Origin: Candidatus Iainarchaeum sp.
Lineage (GTDB): Archaea; Iainarchaeota; Iainarchaeia; Iainarchaeales; JAFCCW01
NCBI GenBank assembly: GCA_017609985.1
Contig: JAFCCW010000001.1
Coordinates: forward strand, 16,397-80,396
Length of the DNA: 64,000 bases
Direction of reading: 5' to 3'
Translations under genes and position numbers: made by a program
Shown: positions 8,914-50,019 of the stretch, in pieces
How positions within the stretch are numbered: position 1 is the stretch's first letter
Layout of the letters: each line of letters begins with the position of its first letter
Notes under the pieces: model-generated
Databases searched by the model: none
The model's input: only the letters and a program-made list of their open reading frames with translations
What the model was told of the DNA's origin: nothing

Positions 8914-10827
8914 ATGGCAGACCTAAAACTTGAGTTTCCAGATGGAAGCAAGAAAGACTACAAAAAAGGAATAACTGGATTGGAAATTGCAAAAGAAATT
9001 GGTGAAAGACTCGCAAAAGACGCAATAGCTATAGAAATAGATGGAAGCCTGCTTGATTTGACACGCCCAATAGAAACAAGCGGAAAATTCAGAATAATTA
9101 CTTTTAAAGACGCAGAAGGAAAACAGGTTTTATGGCACTCTGCAAGCCATGTCATGGCCGAAGCAGTGCAGAAACTCTGGCCGGATGTCAAGCTGGCAAT
9201 AGGGCCGTCAATAGAAGAAGGATTCTACTATGACTTTGACAAAGAAACTCCGTTTACCCCAAGCGACCTTATAAAGATTGAAAAGGAAATGAAAAACATA
9301 GTCAATGAAAATACAAAATTTGAAAGAACAGAAATCGGAAAGAAAGAAGCATTGGCTCATTTCAGAGAAATAAACGAAGAATACAAAGTTGAAATGATTG
9401 AAGAAATTGAAGACGAAAAAATCTCGTTTTACACAAATGGAAAATTCACAGACTTCTGCAGAGGACCGCATGTTCCAAGCACAGGATATGTAAAAGCATT
9501 CAAGCTATTGAAAGTCTCAGGAGCCTATTGGAGAGGAAGCGAAAAAAACAAGATGCTTCAAAGAATTTATGGAATTGCATTCAATGACAAAAAGCTTCTG
9601 AAAGAATGGTTGGGAAAGAGAGAAGAAGCAGAAAAAAGAAACCACATAAAGCTTGGAAAAGAACTTGACTTGTTCAGCATGCAGGACGCTGCTCCAGGAT
9701 GTGCTTTCTTTCACCCGAAAGGAATGGTGTTATGGAATGAACTCATGAAATTTTGGAAAGAAGAACATTTCAAAGACGGATACGTGGAAATAAAAACTCC
9801 AGAGATACTGAGACGAAACTTGTGGGAACAATCAGGTCACTGGGATCACTACAAGGAAAATATGTATTTTACAAAAATAGATGACGAAGACTTTGCAATA
9901 AAACCAATGAACTGCCCGGGAGGAATTCTTGTTTACAAAACCGAAAGACACTCGTACAGAGATCTTCCAATAAAAATGGGAGAAGTAGGAACAGTGCATA
10001 GACACGAGCTAAGCGGAGTGCTAAACGGGCTGTTCAGAGTAAGAAAATTTACACAGGACGATGCACACATATACTGCACAAGAGAACAGGTCAGAGAAGA
10101 AGTCTTAGGAGTAATAGACCTTATTGACAGAGTCTACAAAGTATTTGGATTTGAATACCACATGGAATTGAGCACACGCCCTGACAAAAGCATTGGAAGC
10201 GATGAAGTATGGGCTACAGCAGAAAAGTCACTTAAAGAAGCTCTTGAGTCCACTGGAAAAGAATTCAAAATCAATGAAGGAGACGGTGCATTCTATGGGC
10301 CAAAAATTGACTTTCACATAAAAGATTCATTGGGAAGGACTTGGCAGTGCGGAACAGTACAGCTTGATTTTGCAATGCCGGAAAAGTTTGACCTATACTA
10401 TATTGACGAAAATGACAACAAAAAACAGCCAGTAATGCTGCACAGGGTTGTGTTTGGGTCAGTGGAAAGATTTATTGGAAACATAATAGAACATTACGGA
10501 GGCGACTTTCCAACCTGGCTTGCTCCAGTGCAAGTAAAGGTTATTGCAGTAAGTGATGAGTTCGGAGACTATGCAAAAAAAGTACACAATGAATTGAGAA
10601 ACAAGTTAATTAGAAGCGAACTGGATTTGCGCAAGGAAACTGTTTCAAAAAAAGTCAGGGACGCAGAGCTTCAAAAAGTTCCGTATATTATAAACATCGG
10701 CGGCAAAGAAAAAGAAGCAGGAACAGTGGCTGTGAGAGGAAGAGATGGAAAGGTAAAGTTTGGAGTAAAGCTTGAAGACTTTATCAAAAGCATTGAGAAA
10801 GAAGTTTCTGAAAGAAAAAACATTTAG
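8914..10827 (+). CDS. thrS: threonyl-tRNA synthetase
   Basis: N-terminal TGS-like domain (LEFPDGSKKDYKKGITGLEIA), a second additional domain (HSASHVMAEAV), class II core motifs (FRVRKFTQDDAHIY, GAFYGPKIDF) and an anticodon-binding C-terminus. Confidence 0.95.
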   Translation: MADLKLEFPDGSKKDYKKGITGLEIAKEIGERLAKDAIAIEIDGSLLDLTRPIETSGKFRIITFKDAEGKQVLWHSASHVMAEAVQKLWPDVKLAIGPSIEEGFYYDFDKETPFTPSDLIKIEKEMKNIVNENTKFERTEIGKKEALAHFREINEEYKVEMIEEIEDEKISFYTNGKFTDFCRGPHVPSTGYVKAFKLLKVSGAYWRGSEKNKMLQRIYGIAFNDKKLLKEWLGKREEAEKRNHIKLGKELDLFSMQDAAPGCAFFHPKGMVLWNELMKFWKEEHFKDGYVEIKTPEILRRNLWEQSGHWDHYKENMYFTKIDDEDFAIKPMNCPGGILVYKTERHSYRDLPIKMGEVGTVHRHELSGVLNGLFRVRKFTQDDAHIYCTREQVREEVLGVIDLIDRVYKVFGFEYHMELSTRPDKSIGSDEVWATAEKSLKEALESTGKEFKINEGDGAFYGPKIDFHIKDSLGRTWQCGTVQLDFAMPEKFDLYYIDENDNKKQPVMLHRVVFGSVERFIGNIIEHYGGDFPTWLAPVQVKVIAVSDEFGDYAKKVHNELRNKLIRSELDLRKETVSKKVRDAELQKVPYIINIGGKEKEAGTVAVRGRDGKVKFGVKLEDFIKSIEKEVSERKNI

Positions 10828-12852: not shown

Positions 12853-13461
12853 TTATTCAATAAACTGTTCATAATTTTGAGAATTGAATCTATAAAGAAA
12901 TTTTCTAATTTTTGAATTATCAAATTCATACTTGAGAAGAACTTCTTCTTTTCTTCCACAAAACTCGCTAAAATCGTGTTTTTGAGAAGGGTCAAGGATG
13001 TAAAAATTGCCTTCAATTTCAGAAATAACAAAAGCATGCATTTTCAAAGAATCAAGTTCCGCAATAACAACTTCTGCTTTTCCATCACCAAGACCTGCGA
13101 GAATAGAGCAAAGAAAAAGCGCAAGGTCTTCATCATCCCCTACTTTTTCAGTCATTATTTCTTTTGGAGAAATCCAATAATTAAGAGAAACATCAAGCTC
13201 TGCAAAATCAATTTCGTCTCTGACAAATTCAAAAGCAATTTTTGCGGTAGAAAGATAATCTTTTTCAAAAGAATAGTTTTCAGGGGAAAGGTCAGCTACA
13301 AGAGACTGAACTGTGAGATCTTCGCCGTTAACAAGCGCTTTTATCTCCCCAATAGTGCGCTTTTCCTTCTCGTTAATCAAGTCTGAATATTTCTGAATAA
13401 GAAGCCTGTAAAGCTTTAGTTTCAGTTCCGTATCGGAAGCAGCCTTTTTTGGCTCATTCAT
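12853..13461 (-). CDS. cytoplasmic transglutaminase-like (Cys-His-Asp) fold protein
   Basis: LALFLCSILAGLG ... MHAFVISEIEGNFYILDPS matches the C...H...D spacing of transglutaminase-like cysteine peptidase cores. Started at Met33 (MNEPKK, ATG 13461) because the upstream 32 codons are Cys/Phe-rich and atypical. Confidence 0.5.
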   Translation of the reverse strand: MNEPKKAASDTELKLKLYRLLIQKYSDLINEKEKRTIGEIKALVNGEDLTVQSLVADLSPENYSFEKDYLSTAKIAFEFVRDEIDFAELDVSLNYWISPKEIMTEKVGDDEDLALFLCSILAGLGDGKAEVVIAELDSLKMHAFVISEIEGNFYILDPSQKHDFSEFCGRKEEVLLKYEFDNSKIRKFLYRFNSQNYEQFIE

Positions 13462-13611
13462 TAAAAAAAGAACTGCGGAAAATCCTTTAAACCCGTGTTT
13501 TTGGCAATTCAAGGAAAAAAGCTGAAAAAAACAGCAATATTTAAACAGGTTTTCCAAATAAAAATATTGATTGCATAATTAATTGAGTAAAAAATTTACA
13601 TTGCAAAAAAA

Positions 13612-14745
13612 GTGTTTGAAATGAATCCAAAAACAGGCTCGTTAATCTTTCTTCTTTTACTGCTCATTGCAGCTTTCCCCCTGGTTGCGGGGCAGGAAAT
13701 AGGAAACTCTGAAAAAACAGTGATTAACTTTTTTTGGGCAGAAGGTTGCCCACACTGTGCAGCAGAAAAAGCATTCTTAACCAAACTTGAAGAAAAATAT
13801 GAAAACATTGACGTGAGAAGATACAATCTGTCAAAGAACGTGGAACTATATTTAGAGCTGGCAAAAAAACATGAAATTGAAATGATTGGCTCAGTTCCAG
13901 CAACATTCATTGGAGAAGAAAAATACACAATTGGCTTTCGGCCTGAAAAAATTGAAGAACAAATAAGAGCAGAGCTTGGAATCGAATCAGAAAACGAGTT
14001 CGGAGTAAACGTGCCCTGGCTTGGAAAAATTGATATGAGAACAGCTTCAATACCGCTGATAACTGTTGTGTTTGGGCTAGTTGATGGATTCAACCCATGC
14101 GCAATGGTTGTGCTAATGTTTCTGCTGTCAATTCTTGTAAGAGAAAGATCAAGAAAAAGAATAATCACGATTGCGGGAATTTTTGTGCTAATAAGCGGAC
14201 TGTTTTATTTCATGTTCATGGCTCTCTGGATTAACGTGCTAGAAATAATAAAATATGATTTCATGATAAGAGCAATAGCAGGAGCAATCGCAATAATTGT
14301 TGGATTGTTCAACATCAAAGATTTTTTTGCGCTCGGAAAAGGATTCTCTTTCTCAATATCTGAAGAAAAAAAAGGAAACATTCTGAGAAAAATTCATGGA
14401 ATCGTAAAAAAAGAAGCATTTCTTGCAATGATTGCGGGAGTAATAGTGCTTGCGATAACAGTGAACATGATAGAGCTAGTGTGCACATTCACTCTGCCGG
14501 TTATTTATGTAAGCATTCTAAAGATACAGGGAATTCCCCTGCTGGAGCAATATTTCTATCTGATTTTGTATGTCCTGTTTTACATGCTTGACGACATAGT
14601 AATGATTTCAATCGCAGTTGTTACACTGAGCAGCGACAGGGTGACAGAGGGAACTGGAAAAAAGTTAAAGCTCGTGTCAGGATTAATTCTGCTGGCACTC
14701 GGACTGGCACTTATTTTTGCACCAGGACTTTTGATACTGGGATAA
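13612..14745 (+). CDS. thioredoxin-fold (CPHC) domain fused to a CcdA/DsbD-type thiol-disulfide transfer membrane domain
   Basis: Signal or anchor segment, then FFWAEGCPHCAAEK (CxxC), then a membrane region with GLVDGFNPCAMVVLMFLL (the DsbD/CcdA NPC motif) and a later Cys in ELVCTFTLPV. Confidence 0.75.
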   Translation: MFEMNPKTGSLIFLLLLLIAAFPLVAGQEIGNSEKTVINFFWAEGCPHCAAEKAFLTKLEEKYENIDVRRYNLSKNVELYLELAKKHEIEMIGSVPATFIGEEKYTIGFRPEKIEEQIRAELGIESENEFGVNVPWLGKIDMRTASIPLITVVFGLVDGFNPCAMVVLMFLLSILVRERSRKRIITIAGIFVLISGLFYFMFMALWINVLEIIKYDFMIRAIAGAIAIIVGLFNIKDFFALGKGFSFSISEEKKGNILRKIHGIVKKEAFLAMIAGVIVLAITVNMIELVCTFTLPVIYVSILKIQGIPLLEQYFYLILYVLFYMLDDIVMISIAVVTLSSDRVTEGTGKKLKLVSGLILLALGLALIFAPGLLILG

Positions 14746-16290: not shown

Positions 16291-16686
16291 ATGCAAGAAA
16301 AAAGAGGCCAAACATCGCTAGAATATCTAAGCACAGTGGGAATTATACTAATTGTGATAGCAGGACTTGTGAGCTATGCCTTTGTAATATACCCGGAATA
16401 TGTTCAGATAAGCACTATGAACAAAAGCCTTAGAACTTTGAAGAGTGCGGTAAACTCTGTTTACTCGCTCGGGCCAGGAAACTCGGAAACAATTGAAATT
16501 GAAATAACTTCCGGAATTCAGGGTTCAAGAGTATTCAATAATCTTCTGGAATTTACATACGATGACGGAGCAGTTACACAAATTCTCGTGACTCCAAATT
16601 TGCACGGCACACTCCCAATTACCCGGGGCAGACATAATATTCTTGTAAAAGCAGTTGATGAAAATGTTTTGATTCAGGAGATTTAA
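16291..16686 (+). CDS. class III signal peptide (archaeal type IV pilin-like) protein 1
   Basis: N-terminus MQEKRG^QTSLEYLSTVGIILIVIAGLV: basic n-region, Gly at -1, Gln at +1, Glu at +5, then a hydrophobic helix. Confidence 0.85.
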   Translation: MQEKRGQTSLEYLSTVGIILIVIAGLVSYAFVIYPEYVQISTMNKSLRTLKSAVNSVYSLGPGNSETIEIEITSGIQGSRVFNNLLEFTYDDGAVTQILVTPNLHGTLPITRGRHNILVKAVDENVLIQEI

Positions 16687-17052
16687 ATGAAACAAAAAAA
16701 AGGCCAGGTTGCCCTTGAAACAATAGCAGGAATTGGAATAATCCTTTTCATGTTCCTAATAGTTTCTGTTGACAGCCTGAACAAGTCAATAACTCAAGAA
16801 ACTGTTGAAAATTTAGTGAAAGACGGAGCAAGATGCAGAACTATTGCTGAAAACATTACATCAGCCTATGTTCAAGGAAAATATTCAAAAATAGAAATTT
16901 CAACAGAATTTGATGTGAATATTTTGGGGAACGAAGTCAGTGTCGGAAACACAACCTGTCCAGTTCTTGGAAGAGTACAGGACGCAGTACTTGAAAAAGG
17001 AATAATTGTCTTGAAAAACAGTGACGGAATAGTGGTGCTGGAGAATGAATAA
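16687..17052 (+). CDS. class III signal peptide (pilin-like) protein 2
   Basis: MKQKKG^QVALETIAGIGIILFMFLIV. The start codon directly abuts the stop of the previous gene. Confidence 0.85.
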   Translation: MKQKKGQVALETIAGIGIILFMFLIVSVDSLNKSITQETVENLVKDGARCRTIAENITSAYVQGKYSKIEISTEFDVNILGNEVSVGNTTCPVLGRVQDAVLEKGIIVLKNSDGIVVLENE

Positions 17053-17527
17053 AAAAGGCCAAATCGCAACATATGACCTCTTGTTTGCAATAATCATATT
17101 TATGGGAATTTTTGTTTTAATGAACAGCATATGGGTGGAAAATTATTCCAATGCCATAAAAAAAGAAGAAACAAAAAGAATGCAATTCAGTGCAAAACAG
17201 GCAATGAAAATATTTGTTGACTCTTCAGGATATCCCGCAGACTGGACTTCAGGAAACGTAGAAATACCAGGGCTGTTAAGAGAGTATGGAGCAAAAAAAA
17301 TAAGCAATGAAAAAATAACAGAGCTTGCGGGAATGGACTATGATGCAATAAGGAGCTTGCTCAAAATAGAAGAATATGATTTTTTTCTGTCAATAGATGC
17401 TCTTGGCGAAAGCCATGACCAAAACATTGGAACTGTTGTTCCAGCAAACTCAAAAGCAGTACAGCTTGAGCGGGTTAGATACTATCAAGGAGGGGCTGCT
17501 TCAATTGCACTCACACTTTTTAAATAG
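17045..17527 (+). CDS. class III signal peptide (pilin-like) protein 3
   Basis: MNKKG^QIATYDLLFAIIIFMGIFVLM. There is an 8-nt overlap with the previous gene. Confidence 0.85.
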   Translation: MNKKGQIATYDLLFAIIIFMGIFVLMNSIWVENYSNAIKKEETKRMQFSAKQAMKIFVDSSGYPADWTSGNVEIPGLLREYGAKKISNEKITELAGMDYDAIRSLLKIEEYDFFLSIDALGESHDQNIGTVVPANSKAVQLERVRYYQGGAASIALTLFK

Positions 17528-19853
17528 CAAAAAAGGATTTGTTTTTACAATGGAGGCAGTGATAGCTCTCTTGTTTGTCGCAGGATTTATTATAGTAGCA
17601 GCATCAACCTCCACCCCAGTAAACGAAAGCACAAAAGAAACAGGTCTTGAATCAAAAGAGCTTCTTCAAGGAATTGCACTAGGCATTGATGTGAACGGGG
17701 TTGCACTGGAAGTGCTTGACAGAAATGGAATAACTGCAACTGAGAAAATGAACATAATAAAAGGAATAATTGACTCAAGACTGCCAGCAAGTTTTGAATC
17801 AAGAATAGAAATAAGACAATACGATTCAAATGTAGTAGAATGCAAAACAGGATTAAGCTTTGAAGACTGTTTCACAGAGCTTGGAACATTTCCAGCAACA
17901 GGACAAGCAGTTCCGGAAGACAGAGCAGTCCATCACGAAAAGTTTATGATTGTAAAAAAACAGCCGCCGGCAATGTGTGAAATAAGAGCCGAGGCAATGA
18001 GCCTTGAAAAAGAATTAAGCATTGGAAACAAAAGTATTGAAGAAATTTTTCCAGAAATCTTTTTTGGAGAAACAAAAGTGAAAAATGAGGCAAAGGGAGA
18101 AACCCTGTTTTTTGCAGAAAACGATTTAAACATTATTTTCGGAGCCAGTATGACTCCAAGCGGAGACGTGGAATGTGATGAAACAATAAGAGTTGATTTG
18201 AATGCAACTGTCCCAGACTACGGAAGATTGCCAGCAGACATTGTGCTAGTGCTGGACATAAGTGGAAGCATGATAGATTTTATGAATTTTGGAAAATTTG
18301 GAGACGGGTCCTTTAACAGCGGAACATACAACAAAGACTGGATGGGCTGCTATAATTATGGAAATTACCAGACATTGATGAGTTATGAAGCAACAGTTGA
18401 AAACGAGTTAGCAGAAATAACTCCAAGCCCAGAACACAGATTTGGAGGAATAAGAATAAGGCTTGGAAACTATTCATACAGCGGAGACTGCTCCCGCCCA
18501 ATTGTAAGACTTAGGTTTCCAGACAATTCAGTCGAAGATGATGGATCAAATGCTGTAACCTGGACAGAAATGCTGCCAGAGGGAACATATACAGTGGAGG
18601 GCTGGAGTGATGACCTGATAAATTATGATTTGAACATCGACATTCCAAAACTAAGGATTGCGAGAATTGCAGCAAAAACCTTTGTTGACCTCGCAGACTG
18701 GAAAAGTCAGGACCATATAGGACTGGTGTCCTATAGCGACACCACAGCAACAGAAGAAATTCTCACAAATGACAGAAACGCAATAAAAGATGCACTTGAC
18801 GATCTTAGAACTGGGGGCGGCACAGCAACAGGAGAAGGAATTTATGAAGCAACAGACGAACTTCAAGAGCCTTCAACAGGACACGGCAGAGCAGGAGCAA
18901 TGTCCTTCCAGATACTTCTTTCAGACGGGCAGACAAACTCAGGAAGAAGCTCTTCAGGAGCAGCAACAGATGCTGCAAGCAAAGACATCATAATCTACAC
19001 AATAGGGTTTGGAGAAGATGCAGACGAAACAGAGCTTGGAAACATTGCAAGCATTACAGGCGGAGAATATTATTATGCTCAAGACATCAACATATTGAAT
19101 GACGTGTATGAGCTAATAGCTCTTCAAATAGGGGCTGATTTAAGCCAGACAGAACCAGAAGTAGCCTATGATTCAAACATAAGTATTCCAATTCCAGAAT
19201 GGGCAGAAGTAACAGATTTGGGTGGAGGAACAATTGTAGAAAAAGCAGACGGAAACTATCTTGAATTTGATATAGGGCTTTTAAATGCAGACAACCCGTG
19301 GACAGGATATTTTGAAATAAATTTTCCATGCAACAATGAAAATGCCTGCGCAACAAGCCAGCTAACTTTTCCCCCAGACGGAACAAAATTTGGTTATGAT
19401 GATGGAGACGGAATTCCACAAGACCTGATAAACTTTGACGAGAATATTACTGTAAACTTCAAGTACAGGGATTTGGCAATAAAAGTGAATACTGCAGAAT
19501 TGATTGGAGACAATATGATAAAACTGGATGTGAATGTGTGGAACAATGGCTGGCTTTCATCAAACGCAAGCTATCTAGACTTTTACCTGCACGACCCAAT
19601 AACTGGAAACTTTATTAAACAAGAAACAGTCAATGCATTTTGCGCAGGAAAAGACCCAGCCTGCTCAAACTATATCCAGCTGTTCATAGATCAGGATATT
19701 GGAACAGAAGGATTTATTTATGCAATCGTCAACAGGGACGGAGCAATTTCAGAATGTCCAAACAACAATGTTGTAGAAATATACTGTTACGGCGGTTCAA
19801 AAACCCAGTACTATCTGATGGAGCTATGGATCTGGAGAAAGGGGGCAGAATAA
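17505..19853 (+). CDS. large pilin-like protein with a vWA/MIDAS domain (candidate pilus-associated adhesin); probable TTG start
   Basis: TTG at 17505 lies 11 nt after AAGGAGGGG (17487-17495) and yields (M)HSHFLNSKKG^FVFTMEAVIALLFVAGFIIV. MIDAS elements are LVLDISGSM, GGGTATGEG and LLSDGQTNSG. The longest ORF (ATG 17397) would overlap the upstream gene by 131 nt, and ATG 17550 would remove the charged n-region. Confidence 0.75.
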   Translation: MHSHFLNSKKGFVFTMEAVIALLFVAGFIIVAASTSTPVNESTKETGLESKELLQGIALGIDVNGVALEVLDRNGITATEKMNIIKGIIDSRLPASFESRIEIRQYDSNVVECKTGLSFEDCFTELGTFPATGQAVPEDRAVHHEKFMIVKKQPPAMCEIRAEAMSLEKELSIGNKSIEEIFPEIFFGETKVKNEAKGETLFFAENDLNIIFGASMTPSGDVECDETIRVDLNATVPDYGRLPADIVLVLDISGSMIDFMNFGKFGDGSFNSGTYNKDWMGCYNYGNYQTLMSYEATVENELAEITPSPEHRFGGIRIRLGNYSYSGDCSRPIVRLRFPDNSVEDDGSNAVTWTEMLPEGTYTVEGWSDDLINYDLNIDIPKLRIARIAAKTFVDLADWKSQDHIGLVSYSDTTATEEILTNDRNAIKDALDDLRTGGGTATGEGIYEATDELQEPSTGHGRAGAMSFQILLSDGQTNSGRSSSGAATDAASKDIIIYTIGFGEDADETELGNIASITGGEYYYAQDINILNDVYELIALQIGADLSQTEPEVAYDSNISIPIPEWAEVTDLGGGTIVEKADGNYLEFDIGLLNADNPWTGYFEINFPCNNENACATSQLTFPPDGTKFGYDDGDGIPQDLINFDENITVNFKYRDLAIKVNTAELIGDNMIKLDVNVWNNGWLSSNASYLDFYLHDPITGNFIKQETVNAFCAGKDPACSNYIQLFIDQDIGTEGFIYAIVNRDGAISECPNNNVVEIYCYGGSKTQYYLMELWIWRKGAE

Positions 19854-20834
19854 ATGAATCAGAAAGGAATGATGTTTACCCTAATGGCTCTATTTTTGGT
19901 TCTTGGAATAATTGCATTCAACGAAGACTCTATGAGCAAATGGATGCTTGAAAGCGAATCAACAAAATCAATAGATATTTCATCAGTAGAAAACAAGTAC
20001 GCAAACATAATGGAAACCGTGATTCTCCTGCACACAAACAGCTACAGAAAAGAAATTGATGAAAGAAACATTCCGTTTACGTATCTTTGGGCAGAAGACA
20101 GCAATTCAATAGAAATAAAGCAAAACATTCCCCTGAACACTGTTGATCTTGAAAACTATTTCAATTTTATAAACATATACAATTTTTATCTCTCAGACAA
20201 CAACTACAACAATGTATTTGACGGGCTCGAAATTGATATGAATTCAATAAAGAATGCTCCCTGGGGAGGAACAACTGAAGAACTTCGTTTTTTGGTAAAG
20301 CCCTTTTGTTATCAATACAGAGTAAATGGCGAAGAAGAAATGATACTAGAGGAAGCAAAAACAAAAAAATGTTCAGGAGTGTTTGTTCAATCAAACATTG
20401 CCAGATTTGACATAACCGTAGCAGTAAGAAATTTTGAAGAAGATTTCAATGTGATTAGCTGCAGTGGAGGCGCATGCCCGGAAGACGCGTTCAATCCCGC
20501 AAGCACAGACCCATACTATAGGATAGAAATAAACGATGAAAACTGCGGAAACTGCAACTTGAGCCAGAAAGTGATAAGCAAACACTTTGCATGGGGCTCA
20601 GATAACAACATAACTATTTACAACGACGGGGGCTCACCAGAGTCAACAGAAGTAAAAATAAGAATTAAAGACGATGTAAACATAAGCCGGTATGGAGAAA
20701 AAAGCATTGAAATAAGACTTAAAACAGAATTTGAAGAAGACATAAAGTCTTTTGAATTTCTTGACTTCAACTACACTGTGTACAGCAGGGACGGAAAAGT
20801 GAGAAAATCAAACAATCCGCTAGCAATTGAATAA
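19854..20834 (+). CDS. class III signal peptide-like protein 5
   Basis: MNQKG^MMFTLMALFLVLGIIAF. The start abuts the stop of the vWA gene. The rest of the protein is Asn/Cys-containing and has no recognised domain. Confidence 0.7.
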   Translation: MNQKGMMFTLMALFLVLGIIAFNEDSMSKWMLESESTKSIDISSVENKYANIMETVILLHTNSYRKEIDERNIPFTYLWAEDSNSIEIKQNIPLNTVDLENYFNFINIYNFYLSDNNYNNVFDGLEIDMNSIKNAPWGGTTEELRFLVKPFCYQYRVNGEEEMILEEAKTKKCSGVFVQSNIARFDITVAVRNFEEDFNVISCSGGACPEDAFNPASTDPYYRIEINDENCGNCNLSQKVISKHFAWGSDNNITIYNDGGSPESTEVKIRIKDDVNISRYGEKSIEIRLKTEFEEDIKSFEFLDFNYTVYSRDGKVRKSNNPLAIE

Positions 20835-20935: not shown

Positions 20936-21841
20936 ATGAAAATACTTGAAGCCCACGAAATAACAAAATGCTTTGAAGACAAAAAAGCAGTTGACACTGT
21001 TTCGCTCTCGGTCAACAAAGGCGACTTTTTTGGACTGCTTGGGCCAAACGGGGCAGGAAAAACAACTCTTGTTAGAATCCTCATGAGCTTGAGAAACTAT
21101 GATTCTGGAAAAATATGGCTGTTTGGAAAAGAAAAATTTGGAGAAGAACTTCTTGAAAAAATAGGGTATCTTCCGGAAGAAAAAGGACTTTACGAAGAAA
21201 ACACAGGAATTGAAAACATTTGTTATATTGCTTCGCTTAAAGGAATCAAAAAAGAACAAGCAGAAACAGAGGGAAGAAAGCTTCTTGAAAAAATTAAAAT
21301 GGAAGAATATGCAGATAAAAAAGTAAAAAAAATGAGCAAAGGAACAAGACAAAAAATACAGCTCGTGGCAACACTCGTGCACGACCCACAGCTTTTAGTG
21401 CTTGACGAACCATTCTCGGGACTCGACCCATACAGTGTAAAGCTCATAAAAAGACTGTTGCTGGAGCTTCACAGCAAAGGTAAGACAATAGTGCTGAGCA
21501 CCCACCTAATAAATACAGTTGAAGAAATGTGCACGCGAATTTTAATGGTGAACAATGGAAGAAGAATGCTTTATGGAGACATTGATGATGTGAAAGAAAG
21601 ATATGCACAAAACTCAATTGTTGTTGAAACAAGCTCGGAAATAAAAGATTTAGAGGGTGCGGACCATATTGAAAGATACGGAAGCAATGTAGAAATAGCA
21701 ATAAATGTTACAAAAACACCAGAAGACATACTAGAAGAACTTTTGAAAAGAAAAATAAAGATTTCAAAATATGAAGTAAAAGAACTTTCACTGAATTCTA
21801 TTTTTATAAAACTTGTGGAGGCAGAACAATGGATAAAGTAG
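20936..21841 (+). CDS. ABC transporter ATP-binding protein
   Basis: Walker A GPNGAGKTT, a signature-like MSKGTRQKIQL, and Walker B LLVLDEPFSGLD. Confidence 0.9.
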   Translation: MKILEAHEITKCFEDKKAVDTVSLSVNKGDFFGLLGPNGAGKTTLVRILMSLRNYDSGKIWLFGKEKFGEELLEKIGYLPEEKGLYEENTGIENICYIASLKGIKKEQAETEGRKLLEKIKMEEYADKKVKKMSKGTRQKIQLVATLVHDPQLLVLDEPFSGLDPYSVKLIKRLLLELHSKGKTIVLSTHLINTVEEMCTRILMVNNGRRMLYGDIDDVKERYAQNSIVVETSSEIKDLEGADHIERYGSNVEIAINVTKTPEDILEELLKRKIKISKYEVKELSLNSIFIKLVEAEQWIK

Positions 21842-22692
21842 TCAGCATTCTAAAACACGAGTTTATGACAAACTTCAAAAGAACAGAATACAAGTTTCTG
21901 ACATTCTTAATTCCAGGACTTTTTCTGCTGGCAGGAGCATCCACTCTGTTAATAGATCAAACACAAACAGCAGCAATTCTAAGCACGTTTTCTTCACAAA
22001 ATATTTTCTTCACAATTCCAATGAGTTTTGCAATGATTTTCGGACTGACTATTCTGACATCATCTGGATTTTTGCTGAATGGAATGGCAAAAGAAAAAGA
22101 AAACAGGTTAATGGAAGTAATGCTTACTTCAATAAGTTTCAAAAAAATACTGCTTGGAAAAATTATAGGGCTAGGTTTGCTTGGATTGGTTCAAGTAACA
22201 GCATGGCTTGCATCAATAGCAATTGTTTTCCTACTCTTTATCCCGCCAACGATAGGAACAGGAATAAATCTTCCAGGACTCGGAACACTGGCTTTTTTTG
22301 CAGCAATATATTTTTTCACAGGATATCTCTTTTTTGCATCACTTCTCGCAGGAATCGGAGCACTGGCAAATGACTTGAGGCAAGCACAACAAATCGGTTC
22401 ACTCATAACTGTTTTTGCACTGTTGCCTGCGTGGTCATCAATAATGCTTGTCTCAGCATCAAACTCGCTTGCAGCAAAAGCAATGAGTTATTTTCCAGTG
22501 ACTGCGCCAGTGACAATGATAATTAGAATTTTTCTCGGAGGAGTTGAAACAGGAGAAATAGCCATAAGCATTGTCTCCCTGCTTGTTTCAACAATAGCAG
22601 TCATACTTGTTTCAGGTTATCTGTTCAAATCAGATTCACTCATAAAAGATATTGAAAAACAGATGCAAAAAGCAGGAAACAAAGCTGAATAA
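21829..22692 (+). CDS. ABC-2 type transporter permease
   Basis: A 13-nt overlap with the ATPase gene. About 6 TM helices with a large first loop, the typical ABC-2 layout. Confidence 0.75.
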   Translation: MDKVVSILKHEFMTNFKRTEYKFLTFLIPGLFLLAGASTLLIDQTQTAAILSTFSSQNIFFTIPMSFAMIFGLTILTSSGFLLNGMAKEKENRLMEVMLTSISFKKILLGKIIGLGLLGLVQVTAWLASIAIVFLLFIPPTIGTGINLPGLGTLAFFAAIYFFTGYLFFASLLAGIGALANDLRQAQQIGSLITVFALLPAWSSIMLVSASNSLAAKAMSYFPVTAPVTMIIRIFLGGVETGEIAISIVSLLVSTIAVILVSGYLFKSDSLIKDIEKQMQKAGNKAE

Positions 22693-22781: not shown

Positions 22782-24803
22782 ATGACAAAAAACAAAAGAA
22801 AAAAACAAGGATTCTTTCAAAGACTCTTCTTAAACAGGATATTCAAAAGGATGAGAAAACTTTTGGGAAAAAGTGAAAACAAGCAAGACAAGGAGATGAA
22901 AAAATATGTTGAAAGCGAACTTGACAAGATTTCAAAAGTACACAATTTAAGCAAAAAGGCAGAAGAGGAAAGAATACAGGCATTGAGTGAAAAAGTTGAA
23001 AAGCATGTTCAAAAAGAGAAAGCAGGAAAAGCAAGAGTTCCCCTGAAACCAATACTTGAATCAAGAATAAAAAATGAGAAAACAAAAGAAACTGAAAAAT
23101 CAATGAAAGAAACAGGTCTGAAAACGAAAACAACTAAACTGAAAACAGCAACAAAGACAAAAAAAGCCAAGTCACGAAAAAAGAAAATAAGTGCGAAACC
23201 AAAGAGAAAAGAAAAAAAAATAACCAGTAAAAAAAAGACTGTTAAAAAAGCAAGTGTTTCAAAAAAGAAAAAAAAGAAACCAGCGAAAAAAGATACTGAA
23301 ATTACTGCAAAGCAAAAAGATGTAAAAGAAATCAAAGAAGAGCTTAGAAAACTTAGAAAAAGCCAGCCAAAGGATTCTGGTTCAAAACAAAAAATAAAAA
23401 AGCTTGAAGAAAAACTTAAAAATCTTAAATTAAACTCTGTTGAAAAAGAAAGATACCAAAAAATGCAGAAAAAACTGCTTCAAGGATTTGAAAAAGTTGT
23501 AAAACAACAAAAGATTCCTTCAATTCAGATAATTTTAAACCAATTGCAAAACGCGGAAACACCAGACGAAAAAATAAAACATTACAAAGAACTTTTGAAA
23601 AGAGCAAAATATGAATATTACAAAATGAATCTTTCGCCAGACCAATACAAGAGAATGGTTCTTGAATATGATCACGGAATAAGAGAACAGTTGATTGAAA
23701 AAAAAGTCAAGAAAAAAGAATCAAAAAAGAAAGGAAAAAATAAGACTCAAAAAATCACTGTAAAGGTTACTAAATCAAAACAAAAAACCAGCAGAAGCCC
23801 GCCTTTTCAGATAGATGTTGGAAAGGCAGTGGAAGCCCAACAGCAGCCAGTTCCCGAACCAAAACAAGCAAGAGAAATTCCAGAACCGCCTGCAAAAGAA
23901 CAAGAGCCTGTTCCAAGAAAGCGCGAAGAACGAGAAAAGAGCGAATTTTCCAAGGAAGATCCAAAACCAGAGAAACCAGTTAAAATTCAAAAACCATTTA
24001 AACAAGTCAAACAAGAAATTCAAAAACAAAAAATAATGCCCGCGGCAGCAGAAAAGCCTGCTGAAACTAAAAAAACTCGCGAGAATGGAAAAATTAATGA
24101 AATAAAGGAACTGTTTAAAGATGATGAAGAAGAAAAAAGATCAGAACCAGGAGCAGCAACAATTAGTGCTGAAAGAAGAGACCAAAAAATTCAGGCAATG
24201 GTCAGAGAACACTCTCCCGAAATGACACAAGACCAATCAAGAGAAATTGAAAACAAAATACAAGAAGCAATGAAAAAATATGAAGTAAGCCATAAAGAAA
24301 TAAGCCAACACCTGTCCCATGTTGAATCAAACAATCTTGTTCAAGACTTTGACAAGCTTATTGGAATGATTGAAAAAGACAGAGGAATTAACCGAGGAAG
24401 CGTTGTAAGGCACGAAGTTATTCCTGACATGCCGAAAGGATTTGAAGCAAAAAAAGAAGAAAAAGCAGTGAGCAAAGAAATCAAAGAATTTCAAGTTGAA
24501 ACAGACTATGACAGAATTATGAATATTGTGCAAGAAAAAGGCTCAGCAAGCGGAAAAGAAATAGCAAAACTGCTCAACATCACTCCTGCAGAAGTAAAAG
24601 AAAGAAGCCAAGTGCTGGAAGACAGTGGATTAATCAAGCTAGAGTATCCCGCAATAGGGGGAATAAGAATAGTTGATCCTGAAAAAGAAAAAAAAGACAA
24701 AGAACTGAAAGAAAAGGAAAAAAAAGACAAGGAAGAAACAGCGCTGAAAGCAAAACAAAAAAAAGAAAAAAAGGGGGAAAAGGAAAATGATGCAAAAGCA
24801 TGA
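22782..24803 (+). CDS. lysine-rich low-complexity protein with a C-terminal winged-helix-like domain
   Basis: 673 aa. Long K/T/S/E tracts (KTKTTKLKTATKTKKAKSRKKKISAKPKRKEKK) and a Pro/Gln/Glu segment. Near the C-terminus, DYDRIMNIVQEKGSASGKEIAKLLNITPAEVKERSQVLEDSGLIKLEY has an HTH/wHTH pattern. It overlaps the ATPase gene by 17 nt. Confidence 0.7.
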   Translation: MTKNKRKKQGFFQRLFLNRIFKRMRKLLGKSENKQDKEMKKYVESELDKISKVHNLSKKAEEERIQALSEKVEKHVQKEKAGKARVPLKPILESRIKNEKTKETEKSMKETGLKTKTTKLKTATKTKKAKSRKKKISAKPKRKEKKITSKKKTVKKASVSKKKKKKPAKKDTEITAKQKDVKEIKEELRKLRKSQPKDSGSKQKIKKLEEKLKNLKLNSVEKERYQKMQKKLLQGFEKVVKQQKIPSIQIILNQLQNAETPDEKIKHYKELLKRAKYEYYKMNLSPDQYKRMVLEYDHGIREQLIEKKVKKKESKKKGKNKTQKITVKVTKSKQKTSRSPPFQIDVGKAVEAQQQPVPEPKQAREIPEPPAKEQEPVPRKREEREKSEFSKEDPKPEKPVKIQKPFKQVKQEIQKQKIMPAAAEKPAETKKTRENGKINEIKELFKDDEEEKRSEPGAATISAERRDQKIQAMVREHSPEMTQDQSREIENKIQEAMKKYEVSHKEISQHLSHVESNNLVQDFDKLIGMIEKDRGINRGSVVRHEVIPDMPKGFEAKKEEKAVSKEIKEFQVETDYDRIMNIVQEKGSASGKEIAKLLNITPAEVKERSQVLEDSGLIKLEYPAIGGIRIVDPEKEKKDKELKEKEKKDKEETALKAKQKKEKKGEKENDAKA

Positions 24804-26298
24804 TGTTCTCGAATCCTATTCAGTAAACTTGGAAGAAATTGAGATTGAAATACACATCATTGAAGAAAAAAAAGAATTTGTAAGACAATACTACTTAAAT
24901 CTCCCTCATTTTGGAGCAGGAACAGAGGCTTTGCTGAAAAGACTTAAAACAGGAATTTTGTCAGAAACAAATATTCAAATAGAAAGAAGCCTTGATGCAG
25001 AATTTATCAAAAAAGTAAAAAATAGTTTCAGAGAAAGAGCATTTACAATTCTTAAAAAAGAAATTCCTGACGCAGACGAAAAAACAATGAAAACAATTGT
25101 TGCAGTGCTGTTGCAGGAAATGCTTGGACTAGGCCCAATAGAATTTATGCTTGCAGACCCAAATCTTGAAGAAATAGTAGTAAATCAAAGCAAAGAACCA
25201 GTATGGGTATACCATAAAAAATACGGCTGGCTGAGAACAAATATTTCAATCAAGCCAGAAGAAGAAATAGAAAACTATGCAAATATTATTGCGAGAAGAG
25301 TTGGAAAACAAGTTACAACACTTAACCCGCTGCTTGACGCGCACTTGGTAACAGGAGACAGAGCAAACGCAACGCTTTTTCCAATTTCAACAAAAGGAAA
25401 CACAATAACCATAAGAAGATTTAGAAGAGACCCCTGGACTGTAACAGATTTCATAAAAAACAAAACAACTTCCAGCGAACTAATGGCACTCATCTGGACA
25501 GCAATGCAGTATGAAATGAATATTGTGCTAAGCGGAGGAACAGCTTCAGGAAAAACATCATTCATGAATATTTGCATGCCTTTTATTCAGCCAAACCACA
25601 GAGTAATAAGCATTGAAGACACCAGAGAAATGCAACTTCCAGAATACCTGCATTGGGTTCCACTGACTACAAGAGAGCCAAATGCAGAAGGCAAGGGCGG
25701 AGTAAAAATGCTTGACCTGCTTGTAAACAGTCTAAGAATGAGACCTGACAGAATAATTGTCGGAGAAATTAGAAGACAAAGAGAAGCAGAAGTCTTGTTT
25801 GAAGCAATGCACACAGGACACAGCGCATACACTACATTTCACGCAACAACAGCAGAAGAAACAGTCAGAAGGCTAACAAATCCCCCTATTCTTGTGCCAC
25901 CATCAATGCTTGACGCAATTCACCTGAATGTAGTAATGTTCAGGAACAGAAGACTAGGAGTTAGAAGAGTATTGCAGGTTGGAGAAATTTTAACAGAAAG
26001 AAGAGGAGAAACAGAGTCAGTTAAGGCAAATGTTCTTTATAGATGGAAACCAACAGACGACACAATAAGCAAACACTCAGATTCAATAAGACTCTATGAT
26101 GAACTAGGTCTGCACACTGGACTCAGCTACAAAGAAATCGAACAAGAACTTGAAAAAAAGAAAAAAATACTTGACTATATGGTAAAGAATGATATTCACG
26201 CAATAGGAGAAGTAGGAGCAATCATGGCAAAATTCTACATGGATGAAAAAGAAGTAGTATCAATGGTTGAAAAAAACAAAAAAATGGAGATTGAATGA
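24787..26298 (+). CDS. type II/IV secretion system ATPase (archaeal FlaI/PilB/TadA-like)
   Basis: Walker A SGGTASGKTS; the Asp box and Walker B region RPDRIIVGEIR; the His box HTGHSAYTTFHA. Confidence 0.9.
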   Translation: MMQKHDVLESYSVNLEEIEIEIHIIEEKKEFVRQYYLNLPHFGAGTEALLKRLKTGILSETNIQIERSLDAEFIKKVKNSFRERAFTILKKEIPDADEKTMKTIVAVLLQEMLGLGPIEFMLADPNLEEIVVNQSKEPVWVYHKKYGWLRTNISIKPEEEIENYANIIARRVGKQVTTLNPLLDAHLVTGDRANATLFPISTKGNTITIRRFRRDPWTVTDFIKNKTTSSELMALIWTAMQYEMNIVLSGGTASGKTSFMNICMPFIQPNHRVISIEDTREMQLPEYLHWVPLTTREPNAEGKGGVKMLDLLVNSLRMRPDRIIVGEIRRQREAEVLFEAMHTGHSAYTTFHATTAEETVRRLTNPPILVPPSMLDAIHLNVVMFRNRRLGVRRVLQVGEILTERRGETESVKANVLYRWKPTDDTISKHSDSIRLYDELGLHTGLSYKEIEQELEKKKKILDYMVKNDIHAIGEVGAIMAKFYMDEKEVVSMVEKNKKMEIE

Positions 26299-27185
26299 AT
26301 CTAAAAATTCCCTTTGCGCCATTGCCTGTTCCGGTTCTGAAGAGAATAAGCAACATATTCATTTCTCCAGGATCTAAATTTGCAAAGTCAATGCCTTACA
26401 TAGAAGAAAACCTAAAACAGGGAAACTTTGAAATTCAGTCAGAAGAGTACTGCTCGATAATGCTTTTCACAAGCCTGCTGTACTTTGTTTTCTTCACACT
26501 GCTTCTTGGCCTGCTATTGTCAAAAATAGGGTTAAGAGGTGGCTGGCTTTTAGCTGCAACTGTTGGAGCAATAGTGGCATTTCTGATTGCACTGCAAATA
26601 TTGATTTATCCAAAAATGATGGTAAACAAAAAAGTGAAAAATATTGAAATCAACCTGATATATGCACTGAGAACAATTCTTATCCAGATAAGAAGCGGAG
26701 TAACACTTTTTGATGCAATGAACACAGTGGCAAAGGGAGACTTTGGAGAACTGGGAAATGAATTCAAGATAACAGTTGAAGCAATAGAAACAGGAATGCT
26801 GCAAGACGAAGCACTTGACAAAATGGCGGAAAGAAACCCGTCACACTATCTCAGAAAAGCTCTTTGGCAAATTTCAAACGGATTAAAAGCAGGAGGAGAT
26901 GTGCAGTCAGTAATTGGAGAAAGTGTTTCAACAATGCTAAGGGAAGAAAAAATAGGAATAACAAAATTTGGAGCATCCCTTAGACTGCTTTCCCTGATGT
27001 ACATGATGATTGGAGTCATAATGCCGGCAATGGGTTTAACATTCCTTATTGTTCTAGGCTCTTTTCCAAATGTTCCGCTGGACGAAAGTCTTTTTTGGAT
27101 ATTATTAATTTCAAGCGCAATAATGCAGTTTATGTATATTGGAATAATTAAATCAAAGAGACCAAATCTTATGAGCACCGGGTGA
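26295..27185 (+). CDS. type II secretion system F-domain platform protein, first of two (TadB-like)
   Basis: Single T2SF-type cytoplasmic helical domain (LRTILIQIRSGVTLFDAMNTVAKG...ALWQISNGLKAGGD) flanked by TM helices. It overlaps its neighbours by 4 nt on each side. Confidence 0.8.
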   Translation: MNLKIPFAPLPVPVLKRISNIFISPGSKFAKSMPYIEENLKQGNFEIQSEEYCSIMLFTSLLYFVFFTLLLGLLLSKIGLRGGWLLAATVGAIVAFLIALQILIYPKMMVNKKVKNIEINLIYALRTILIQIRSGVTLFDAMNTVAKGDFGELGNEFKITVEAIETGMLQDEALDKMAERNPSHYLRKALWQISNGLKAGGDVQSVIGESVSTMLREEKIGITKFGASLRLLSLMYMMIGVIMPAMGLTFLIVLGSFPNVPLDESLFWILLISSAIMQFMYIGIIKSKRPNLMSTG

Positions 27186-28186
27186 AAAAAATGTATCAAA
27201 GAATAGCAGCAATATTACCAAAAAGTTTTGTAAACTGGATTCAATCAGAACTAGACTTTGTGGGAATCAAAGTAGATGAAAGACAGTTTGCAGGATTTGT
27301 AGTATCGTTTGGAATAGGATTAAGCATTGCAGTAGCAATAAATCTTCAAGTATTTCTTGAACTTGCTTTTCCAATAGGATTCTTTGGAACATTAATAGTC
27401 TTTGTTGGAGGAATGCTTTTCTGGATAAATTCAGTTGCAGAAAACAAGGGAAAATTTGTTGAAAGAATTCTTCCGGATGCACTCCAGTTGATTGCGTCAA
27501 ATATCAAAGCAGGAATGACAGCTGAAAGAGCATTGATGGCGAGTGCAAGACCAGAATTTGGACCACTATCAGAAGAATTCAAAAACGCAAGCAAAAAAGT
27601 GTTTGCAGGCACTCCATTTGACACTGCACTACTGGAAATTGCAACAAAAATCAAGTCACCACTGCTCAAAAGAACAATATGGCTGTTAACACAGGGAATA
27701 AAAAGCGGAGGAGAAATCGCAGACCTATTACTGCAAATTGGGTCAGACCTAAGAGAAGAAAACGCGATAAAAGATGAAATACAGGGAAACGTAAGCATTT
27801 ACGTGCTGATGATATTTGTTGCAGCAGCATTTGGCTCACCACTGCTGTTTGGAATGAGCTCGATTGTTGTTGGAACACTCTCAGAACAGATGGATAATGT
27901 AGACCTTTCCCCTGAAAAACTTGCCGAAATGCAAACCCAAAGCAGAGTAGGAAACATTATAGGAGTGCCAACAGCATCAATAACAGAAGAATTTGTAGTA
28001 TTCTTTTCAACGATTTCACTACTAGTAATATCTGTTTTTGCATCACTGACACTGGGAGCAATAAGCTCTGGCAAGGAAAAAGACGGAATAAAATACATTC
28101 CAGTGCTGATTCTGATGACAATAACTATCTTCTTTGTGATAAGAATATTCATCGGCGGAGCAATAGGCTCACTTGGAATGATGTAA
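27182..28186 (+). CDS. type II secretion system F-domain platform protein, second of two (TadC-like)
   Basis: Single T2SF-type domain (LQLIASNIKAGMTAERALMASA...IWLLTQGIKSGGE) plus TM helices. Confidence 0.8.
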   Translation: MKKMYQRIAAILPKSFVNWIQSELDFVGIKVDERQFAGFVVSFGIGLSIAVAINLQVFLELAFPIGFFGTLIVFVGGMLFWINSVAENKGKFVERILPDALQLIASNIKAGMTAERALMASARPEFGPLSEEFKNASKKVFAGTPFDTALLEIATKIKSPLLKRTIWLLTQGIKSGGEIADLLLQIGSDLREENAIKDEIQGNVSIYVLMIFVAAAFGSPLLFGMSSIVVGTLSEQMDNVDLSPEKLAEMQTQSRVGNIIGVPTASITEEFVVFFSTISLLVISVFASLTLGAISSGKEKDGIKYIPVLILMTITIFFVIRIFIGGAIGSLGMM

Positions 28187-28283: not shown

Positions 28284-28739
28284 TTAGATTGTTCCGTTAC
28301 AAACTATTTTTGCTGTGGCTGGTAAAGTGCCTTCTGTTGTGTACAACACTGTAGCAGTAGCGCCAGTGACGTTTCCGGCAGTAGCAGGACCATCAAGCGT
28401 TGTGACTGTAAATGTTGAACCTGCCGCAACAGTTCCAGCAGTACATTCAGCTGTGCCTGCACAGTCAGTAATCCCTGTACCATCACACGAAGTTACACAA
28501 TTATCCACAAGTGTTATTGTTCCACCCGTAGCATTCTGCAGTGTAAATCCAACCGCATCAGTACCAAGACTAAACGTGCTCTCTTTCAGAATAATTGAAT
28601 TATTCTGGCTGACACAGGTAACTCCTCCGCCTGTTGTACTGGTCACATAAATAAGGATTCCGATTACAATCGCAATCACGATAAGTGCCCAGCCATAGGT
28701 CATCAAATACTCAAGAGCTGCTTGTCCTTTTTTTTCCAT
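28284..28739 (-). CDS. archaeal type IV pilin (probable major subunit)
   Basis: MEKKG^QAALEYLMTYGWALIVIAIVIGILIYV followed by a Thr/Gly/Ala-rich beta-type domain. A strong SD, AAGGAGGGAAAAC, precedes the ATG on the minus strand. Confidence 0.9.
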   Translation of the reverse strand: MEKKGQAALEYLMTYGWALIVIAIVIGILIYVTSTTGGGVTCVSQNNSIILKESTFSLGTDAVGFTLQNATGGTITLVDNCVTSCDGTGITDCAGTAECTAGTVAAGSTFTVTTLDGPATAGNVTGATATVLYTTEGTLPATAKIVCNGTI

Positions 28740-30299: not shown

Positions 30300-30998
30300 A
30301 TGAGAGAAGACATAAGAATCAAAACCGGAGTGCCGGGACTGGACGAAATACTCTACGGAGGAATTCCTAAAAGCAATCTTGTAGTGCTCTCCGGAGACCC
30401 TGGAAGCGGAAAAACCATAATGTGCCTGCAATATCTTTACAATGGCGCGACAAAATTTAATGAAGCCGGAATTTATATTTCACTTGAAGAAAGTGAAGAA
30501 GAACTCATAAAGATTGCAGCAGACTTCGGATGGGATTTTAACAAGCTTCAAAAAGAAGGAAAGGTTGCAATAATTACAGTAGAATTATACGACTTTGACA
30601 AACTGAAAAATACTATTGAAGATGCAATAAGCAAAATGGGCGCAAAAAGGCTGGTGATAGACCCTGGAGTAATATTCAGACTATACTTTGAAAGAGAACT
30701 GGATGCAAGAAAAAGAATAATGGGTTTAGGAAAAATGCTCAAAAAAATAAACTGCACTTCAATAATTACAAACGAAATAGCACTTGACAAAATTGACTCC
30801 TTGTTTGGGCTTGAAGAATATGTTGCAGACGGAGTGATTCTCTTATACCACACATGTTCACAAAACAAGTTTATTAGATCCATTGGAGTACTAAAAATGA
30901 GAGGCACAAAAATTTCCGAAAAACTCCATCCTCTTCAGATAACAAAAAACGGATTAAAGGCACTGCACAAGCAAGAGCTTTTTGAAGACATCAAATGA
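30300..30998 (+). CDS. KaiC-like RecA-superfamily ATPase (single domain)
   Basis: GVPGLDEILYGGIPKSNLVVLSGDPGSGKTIMCLQYLYNG (Walker A), SLEESEEELIKIAADFGWDF (KaiC-family hallmark), and VIDPG as Walker B. Confidence 0.85.
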   Translation: MREDIRIKTGVPGLDEILYGGIPKSNLVVLSGDPGSGKTIMCLQYLYNGATKFNEAGIYISLEESEEELIKIAADFGWDFNKLQKEGKVAIITVELYDFDKLKNTIEDAISKMGAKRLVIDPGVIFRLYFERELDARKRIMGLGKMLKKINCTSIITNEIALDKIDSLFGLEEYVADGVILLYHTCSQNKFIRSIGVLKMRGTKISEKLHPLQITKNGLKALHKQELFEDIK

Positions 30999-49839: not shown

Positions 49840-50019
49840 ATGAAAAGAGGAAAAAAATACGAGATTGAAGTTCTCATGGAAGGCAGGGGAGGAGAGCTTG
49901 TTTTTCAGCCAGTGAAAGCAAGCAAGCACGATCTCAAAGCATTGATTGAAGCAACAAAGAATCCTGTTATTAAAGAAAACATCAGAAAAAGTGCAGAGGA
50001 AAAAAAGGTGAAACTGTGA
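49840..50019 (+). CDS. candidate 59-aa protein (below the ORF-track threshold)
   Basis: MKRGKKYEIEVLMEGRGGELVFQPVKASKHDLKALIEATKNPVIKENIRKSAEEKKVKL. Its stop overlaps the GTG start of the next gene (GTGA). The competing antisense ORF 49816..50052 has Phe/Cys-rich junk composition. Confidence 0.45.
   Translation: MKRGKKYEIEVLMEGRGGELVFQPVKASKHDLKALIEATKNPVIKENIRKSAEEKKVKL

Follow-up and report, generated by a model that had tools for sequence, protein, structure and literature searches.

The window, a 64,000-nucleotide stretch of contig JAFCCW010000001.1 from Candidatus Iainarchaeum sp. (assembly GCA_017609985.1), encodes a large protein that joins a prepilin-like N terminus to a von Willebrand factor A (vWA) domain. 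The gene occupies positions 17505-19853 of the forward (+) strand, starts at a TTG codon, overlaps its upstream neighbor by 23 nt and encodes 782 residues. The protein comprises a short leader, a hydrophobic helix, an N-terminal domain, a vWA domain with a complete metal ion-dependent adhesion site (MIDAS), and a C-terminal all-β region. The vWA domain is split by an all-β insert that begins right after the DxSGSM motif, and relatives carry very different modules at this site. The protein is probably a pilin-anchored adhesin of modular build. The gene and the region just upstream of it contain the following elements.

17487-17495, + strand: Shine-Dalgarno-like element AAGGAGGGG.
17505-17537, + strand: TTG start and 11-residue class III leader MHSHFLNSKKG, with predicted cleavage after G11.
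17538-17606, + strand: hydrophobic helix of the mature protein, residues 12-34, FVFTMEAVIALLFVAGFIIVAAS, comparable to pilin α1-N.
17607-18233, + strand: N-terminal domain, residues 35-243, with helices at 41-92 followed by β-strands, and four invariant cysteines.
18234-18272, + strand: vWA strand β1 and MIDAS DxSxS motif, residues 244-256, DIVLVLDISGSM, with D251, S253, and S255.
18273-18647, + strand: 125-residue all-β insert in the β1-α1 loop, residues 257-381, with a conserved GTWTVxGWSDDxINYD motif.
18648-19142, + strand: rest of the vWA Rossmann fold, residues 382-546, with T440 (18822-18824) and D474 (18924-18926).
19143-19853, + strand: C-terminal all-β region, residues 547-782, and the stop codon, with invariant C609, C615, C751, and C761.

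The open reading frame extends upstream of the assigned start to a first ATG at 17397 (17397-19853, +; 818 residues), and TTG 17505 lies in frame with it. Nine in-frame ATG, GTG, or TTG codons are present in 17397-17559, and only TTG 17505 is preceded by a well-spaced GGAGG. The original prediction, which had also chosen this codon, gave the spacing as 11 nt; this is correct when counted from the GGAGG core, and the end of AAGGAGGGG lies 9 nt from the codon. A GGAGG or GGTG sequence is also found 6-10 nt ahead of the start in many other genes of the window.

Related loci point to the same codon. Orthologues P0002-P0005 begin 9-12 residues ahead of the motif (S/N/K)-K-G↓F-V-F-T-(L/F/M)-E, in which the arrow marks the predicted cleavage. 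In loci L005 and L006, the N termini of the vWA proteins lie at the same distance (9-12 residues) from the KG↓FVFT motif. Loci L001-L003 contain stops in the vWA reading frame 8-10 codons upstream of their starts, and a long extension like that from ATG 17397 is therefore impossible there. The aligned DNA of these three loci carries a GGAGG/GGGGG-like element and a GTG, TTG, or ATG codon at the same place. The orthologous vWA genes overlap their upstream genes by 26-41 nt. A start at ATG 17397 would produce an overlap of 131 nt with the upstream gene, which ends at 17527, and would put KKG at residues 45-47, in line with the predicted burial of the signal by about 45 residues. This codon lacks a Shine-Dalgarno motif, and orthologues have stops in the corresponding stretch; it was rejected on these three grounds. 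Sequence upstream of 17505 is not conserved in this frame among the orthologues.

The deposited annotation (P0001 in the public protein collection) begins at ATG 17550 and predicts 767 residues. If it were correct, the product would be a plain signal-anchor vWA membrane protein devoid of a class III leader. ATG 17550 has in its favor that it is a canonical start codon and the one in the public record. This call is nevertheless very improbable: all orthologues have Leu or Phe in place of the encoded Met, at least 60 relatives retain the KG↓FVFT motif that lies upstream, and the codon lacks a good Shine-Dalgarno motif ahead of it. Starts at ATG 17550 and GTG 17559 would both cut into the conserved motif and were rejected. 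The orthologue N termini, the upstream in-frame stops, and the sole well-spaced GGAGG agree with one another, and we take TTG 17505 to be the true start, missed by the public annotation. The 767-residue model loses the signal, including the basic n-region as had been predicted, so pipelines for signal or pilin prediction will miss this protein and similarly mis-started relatives.

The N terminus MHSHFLNSKKG↓FVFTMEAVIALLFVAGFIIVAAS opens with a short, basic leader closed by [KR][GA], after which come about 20 hydrophobic residues. The same pattern runs through the family. Among 66 members with an intact N terminus, Lys occupies position -2 in 46, Gly or Ala position -1 in 63, Phe position +1 in 57, and Asp or Glu position +6 in 62. 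The median leader is 12 residues long and is followed by about 20 hydrophobic residues. By this pattern, the leader is classified as a class III (prepilin-type) signal.

An AlphaFold2 model of the protein was built on a 19-sequence alignment, with a mean predicted local distance difference test (pLDDT) score of 79.4. The hydrophobic N-terminal helix, whose absence from a predicted structure would have spoken against a pilin-like protein, spans residues 16-33 in the full model and 11-34 in a separate model of residues 1-381 (pLDDT 66.5). Helices at 16-64 and 78-92 precede four strands at 97-161, and an acidic, low-confidence loop at 162-206 is disordered. This order of elements is compatible with a pilin fold, in which a long α1 helix packs on a four-stranded antiparallel sheet.

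The vWA domain was identified by Pfam VWA (PF00092) at residues 388-535 with an E value of 1.7e-22 (80.9 bits, cutoff 23.8). The match covers only profile positions 22-172, and the DxSxS strand is therefore split off from the rest of the domain. The missing part is found upstream: strand β1 spans residues 244-251 in the model, and DISGSM (residues 251-256) aligns with the DxSGSM motif of PDB 4rck. The next vWA helix, KLRIARIAAK, starts at residue 382. The vWA core at 382-546 is modeled with pLDDT values of 85-96. A search of PDB with Foldseek returned vWA structures, the best with an E value of 2e-14. Pilus tip adhesins are among them, namely SpaC (6m3y, 4e-13), Mfa5 (6to1, 1.8e-10), PilB (7ba2, 3.9e-8), and RrgA (2ww8, 9e-8).

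The complete MIDAS claimed by the original prediction is present. None of its five residues (D251, S253, S255, T440, and D474) varies among the 19 aligned homologues, and the motif suggests that they bind a divalent cation. The Foldseek matches also include 8s05 and 5a8j, which prompted a reading as an ArnB-like cytoplasmic regulator; it was rejected, since the protein has a signal peptide and invariant Cys pairs and is encoded in a pilus operon. In a 2016 survey (PMC4858521), vWA proteins appear only as such cytoplasmic ArnB-type regulators.

The C-terminal region folds into all-β domains at 554-778 (pLDDT 85-93). It measures 236 residues after the vWA domain, fewer than the approximately 300 first estimated. 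Some relatives match Pfam CARDB here, and a profile search of PDB gave a weak match to 3idu. In total, eight cysteines are invariant, four in the N-terminal domain (C113, C122, C158, and C224) and four in the C-terminal region, consistent with an extracellular protein. Scans of the N-terminal domain, the insert, and the C-terminal region against Pfam and NCBIfam gave only chance-level matches.

The insert separates DxSGSM from helix α1 by 125 residues, versus about 8 in the canonical vWA structure of PDB 4rck. Its position right after DISGSM is as originally predicted; its length is slightly less than the proposed 128 residues, and it ends at 18647 rather than 18656. It had been described as rich in Gly, Tyr, Cys, and Asp. 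This description stands for Gly, Tyr, and Asp, to which Asn and Ser should be added, but not for Cys, which occurs only twice. In the AlphaFold2 model, the insert forms an independent all-β module at 259-381, mostly with pLDDT values of 76-90. Neither Pfam nor PDB yielded a sequence match to the insert; an alignment of 10 insert sequences, searched as a profile against PDB, reached a best E value of 0.39. Foldseek with the model of residues 1-381 found nothing below an E value of 1e-3. The fold resembles weakly the P-domains of furin and kexin and the collagen-binding domains of collagenases (E = 0.008-0.1), and another weak match of the same model is the C-terminal jelly roll of Tk-SP. The insert is probably a small β-sandwich of a new sequence family. 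It emerges from the DxSxS loop itself and, judged by fold topology, would lie on the MIDAS face.

The family is sizeable. An exhaustive profile search yielded 91 clusters (50% identity) at E < 1e-30, and the named members belong to 'Candidatus Diapherotrites archaeon'. Among GTDB representative genomes, searched with a six-sequence alignment, metagenome-assembled genomes of archaea are the only ones with full-length relatives.

The segment between DxSGSM and α1 varies greatly in size. In 67 members, it falls into classes of about 100-150 residues (the class of the window protein, with 20 representatives), 240, 300, 440-510, and 590 residues. It reaches 896-1573 residues in a few members and is nearly absent (9-12 residues) in two. 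Of 38 members scanned for recognizable modules, 16 carry LVIVD β-propeller repeats, 5 match Beta_propel, and 3 match DUF4082. Within the short-insert class, the inserts share an identity of 0.33-0.38 and keep the GTWTVxGWSDDxINYD motif. Against long-insert relatives, identity is 0.16 in the insert versus 0.51 in the vWA core.

On a neighbor-joining tree of the non-insert columns, calculated without support values, the size classes are interleaved. Sister pairs carry inserts of 127 and 482, 122 and 235, 297 and 455, or 305 and 448 residues. This interleaving indicates repeated replacement at one site. The comparisons indicate that the insertion site acts as a variable cassette, in which relatives appear to have exchanged the module for unrelated ones: a β-sandwich, LVIVD propellers of three to seven blades, DUF4082, and inserts of up to 1.5 thousand residues. 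That relatives fill this site with unrelated modules agrees with the role in ligand specificity first proposed for the insert.

The vWA gene is the fourth of five tightly packed or overlapping genes (16291-20834), each encoding a short basic leader that ends in K/R-G and a hydrophobic helix. The other members of this group and the pilus machinery of the window are as follows.

16291-16686, + strand: small class III-signal (minor-pilin-like) gene, N terminus MQEKRG↓QTSLE.
16687-17052, + strand: small class III-signal (minor-pilin-like) gene, N terminus MKQKKG↓QVALE.
17045-17527, + strand: small class III-signal (minor-pilin-like) gene, N terminus MNKKG↓QIATYD.
19854-20834, + strand: 326-residue, Cys-rich class III-signal protein directly downstream of the vWA gene, N terminus MNQKG↓MMFTLMAL, its position kept in related loci.
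24787-26298, + strand: T2SSE ATPase (Pfam).
26295-27185, + strand: T2SSF platform gene (Pfam).
27182-28186, + strand: T2SSF platform gene (Pfam).
28284-28739, - strand: divergent candidate major pilin, N terminus MEKKG↓QAALEYLMTYGWALIV, at the same position in L001-L003 and L006.
62535-63350, + strand: A24 prepilin (class III signal) peptidase (Pfam Peptidase_A24, E = 1.2e-10).

The gene order is the same in six loci (L001, L002, L003, L005, L006, and that of the window): three small class III genes, the vWA gene, a gene for a Cys-rich class III protein of about 325 residues, a linker gene, T2SSE, and two T2SSF genes. The class III proteins are thus encoded with type IV filament machinery in all six. 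The linker protein ahead of the ATPase has 673 residues in the window and 135-834 in the related loci. One or two major pilin genes on the opposite strand are present in the window, L001-L003, and L006, and none was seen there in L005.

Several details of the window's own locus can be added. The linker gene (22782-24803, +) overlaps the start of the ATPase gene; its product is rich in Lys and Glu and has a C-terminal winged-helix HTH_24 domain (residues 578-619). An ABC transporter pair (ATPase and permease; 20936-22692, +) lies inside the pilus operon and is not found at that slot in L001-L003, L005, or L006. The public protein collection contains the neighbors of the candidate major pilin but not its exact sequence, and the gene may be uncalled or differently started. 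An additional class III pilin of 229 residues with a GTG start is encoded far from the main locus (54789-55478, +; Pfam Class_IIIsignal, E = 5.5e-8).

The operon position shared with four other class III proteins, together with the invariant, disulfide-type Cys pairs, would also suit a factor that primes assembly or senses force. Together with the minor pilins, such a protein would start or cap the pilus and would govern piliation or the sensing of surfaces, its vWA domain being force-sensitive. Deletion of CpaL lowers piliation and alters surface sensing (PMC11870444), and PilY1 together with minor pilins primes assembly (cited in PMC11870444). A role of this kind overlaps with that of an adhesin and is compatible with it. 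As the principal function we consider it unlikely, since the fully conserved MIDAS and the hypervariable, outward module point more naturally to ligand recognition, and neither a retraction ATPase nor sensory genes were identified in the locus.

We favor, with moderate confidence, the view that the protein is a pilin-anchored, modular, minor-pilin-like MIDAS adhesin and belongs to an Epd/Tad-like pilus (archaeal type IV, with two platform genes) of a DPANN-type archaeon. The protein would be translated from TTG 17505, and the A24 prepilin peptidase would remove the 11-residue leader after Gly11. The hydrophobic N-terminal helix would first anchor the vWA protein in the membrane and then insert into the filament with the four neighboring class III-signal proteins. 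By analogy, the five proteins would most plausibly assemble into a tip or priming complex. The vWA domain would face outward and bind a carboxylate of the ligand through the divalent cation held by the five MIDAS residues. The 125-residue β module, rooted in the DxSxS loop on the MIDAS side, may shape or add to ligand recognition. The original proposal of a metal-dependent tip adhesin, drawn by analogy with TadG and PilY1, is supported, and none of the three conditions named in advance as refuting it held when examined; the tip location itself is suggested by analogy with known pilus proteins.

Several observations weigh against this interpretation. The conserved acidic residue of the signal lies at +6, and the classical position is +5. 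The Pfam models Class_IIIsignal, N_methyl, and TadE do not match the vWA protein. Foldseek of the model of residues 1-381 gave no pilin match, the best E value being 0.008. When the family profile was aligned by hhalign with those of the upstream 160-residue and downstream 326-residue protein families, the probabilities were 1-3% and not significant, and paralogy with the neighboring pilin-like genes is therefore not supported. The G-rich element ahead of the start also codes for the conserved C terminus of the upstream gene, in which AAGGAGGGG is read as ..QGG.., and its conservation is not independent evidence for the start. The AlphaFold2 model has a predicted template modeling score of 0.43, and where the insert lies with respect to the MIDAS is deduced from fold topology. 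Finally, archaeal class III signals also occur on surface proteins other than pilins (Makarova 2016, PMC4858521).

The last point and the lack of a detected pilin fold in the N-terminal domain bear on a further explanation, in which the vWA protein depends on its class III signal and on the machinery of the pilus only for export and membrane anchoring and resides on the cell surface outside the filament, like the substrates of the Sulfolobus bindosome. A chain of 782 residues would also be very bulky for a filament subunit. This explanation is improbable on the evidence of the locus: the gene is tightly packed, with overlapping frames, between minor-pilin-like genes in six loci, and bulky modular pilins are known at pilus tips (PMC8179133).

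Other genes of the window were noted alongside the pilus operon. A transglutaminase-like/CEP76-peptidase-like protein is encoded just upstream of the pilin operon in the window (12853-13557, -), L002 (3402-4001), L003 (6046-6642), and L005 (6540-7151), and a second transglutaminase-core surface protein is encoded at 50016-51686. The gene at 13612-14745 (+) adjoins the operon; its product joins a thioredoxin-fold domain (CPHC) to a multi-pass membrane domain and could serve disulfide formation in Cys-rich pilus proteins. Near the pilus locus, both the window (30300-30998, +) and L006 (19429-20115) encode a KaiC/RecA-like ATPase; this class has been proposed to regulate type IV pili (Makarova et al. 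2016, PMC4858521). The window also encodes a second extracellular vWA/MIDAS protein (5258-6916, -; 552 residues), with a Sec-type signal and a linker rich in Pro and Glu; right after its own DKSGSM motif it has about 38 extra residues. The threonyl-tRNA synthetase (8914-10827, +) is about 59% identical to Firmicutes enzymes (Thermincola and Tepidanaerobacter) and about equally close to those of Candidatus Diapherotrites and Woesearchaeota, which suggests a bacterial type common to DPANN lineages.

The attachment of DPANN archaea to surfaces or to partner cells is poorly understood, and the family, with about 90 sequence clusters, offers a concrete candidate adhesin. It also amounts to an experiment of nature in which modules next to a MIDAS are swapped. 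Neither the 2016 (PMC4858521) nor the 2026 (bioRxiv 10.64898/2026.04.22.720090) survey of archaeal type IV filaments lists a vWA/MIDAS pilin, and a literature search found no publication combining DPANN, pilin, and vWA domain. As an archaeal counterpart to bacterial PilB and CpaL/TadG, the family bears on the archaeal origin of Tad pili, whose ancestors were Epd-like pili of archaea, built with two platform genes (PMC6668835). A more far-reaching proposal, advanced here tentatively, is that DPANN archaea swap binding modules into the DxSxS-loop cassette to retarget their pili, possibly to host cells, and that the bacterial TadG/CpaL split-vWA minor pilins have their archaeal root in this family through the Epd-to-Tad transfer.

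Comparable proteins and systems have been described in bacteria and archaea. PilB of Streptococcus sanguinis (PDB 7b7p/7ba2) resembles the window protein in its class III signal, hydrophobic helix, and vWA domain with a complete MIDAS. Extra β 'arms' flank the MIDAS of PilB, which is needed for adhesion, and its architecture, a pilin joined to a vWA domain, fits only at the tip, where it is predicted to act as an adhesin (PMC8179133). PilB was recovered by Foldseek with the E value given above, and only weakly by the profile search of PDB (6.8e-5). It differs from the window protein in several respects. PilB comes from a monoderm bacterium, has 426 residues, and joins a small pilin module directly to a vWA domain with short arms, whereas the window protein contains an N-terminal domain of about 230 residues and unconfirmed fold, the 125-residue domain after DxSxS, and 236 residues of C-terminal β domains.

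CpaL, the TadG orthologue of Caulobacter, has a predicted module resembling a pilin, plus a vWA domain split by a β-rich insert, and is predicted to lie at the tip (PMC11870444). CpaL/TadG and the window protein share a pilin-like N-terminal region, the split vWA domain with a MIDAS, and genes for minor pilins at the same locus, in the bacterial case those of the two-platform TadB/TadC system. However, the insert of CpaL starts about 40 residues after DxTxS (residue 204 versus MIDAS residues 160-164) and, by the published description, points away from the MIDAS (PMC11870444), whereas that of the window protein starts 2 residues after DxSxS. TadE (PF07811), Tad (PF13400), and Tad_C (PF09977) gave no match to the window protein at E ≤ 0.01, nor at E ≤ 5 with the N-terminal fragment. 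Architecture and locus type match, but the insertion point differs, and homology is seen only in the generic vWA domain; the likeness is a resemblance rather than proof of orthology.

PilY1/PilC is likewise a pilus-associated vWA protein that works with minor pilins in adhesion, priming, and surface sensing. It is itself not a pilin, and it carries a Sec signal as well as a PilY1 β-propeller at its C terminus. A Pfam scan found no PilY1 domain in the window protein, whose N terminus is class III-like and not Sec-type, and the absence of the propeller excludes identity with PilY1. RrgA and SpaC of sortase pili and Mfa5 of type V pili also place a vWA/MIDAS domain with inserted arms or domains and β-sandwich flanks at the tip, but their assembly, by sortase or strand exchange, is unrelated, and they lack a class III signal.

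Among archaeal systems, the type IV filament 'System 1'/Epd loci, as in Methanococcus maripaludis, are similar in having an ATPase, two platform genes, several class III pilins, and a dedicated A24 peptidase. Two platform genes define both the Epd-like/Tad clade (PMC6668835) and 'System 1' (bioRxiv 10.64898/2026.04.22.720090), and such loci have been reported in methanogens and some DPANN archaea (bioRxiv 10.64898/2026.04.22.720090). They differ in their adhesin-like components, which are DUF2341/PilY-like or galactose-binding (PMC4858521; bioRxiv 10.64898/2026.04.22.720090). The kind of protein encoded in the window is already known from bacteria; its archaeal lineage, the insertion point right after the DxSxS motif, and the cassette-like variability of the insert are new.

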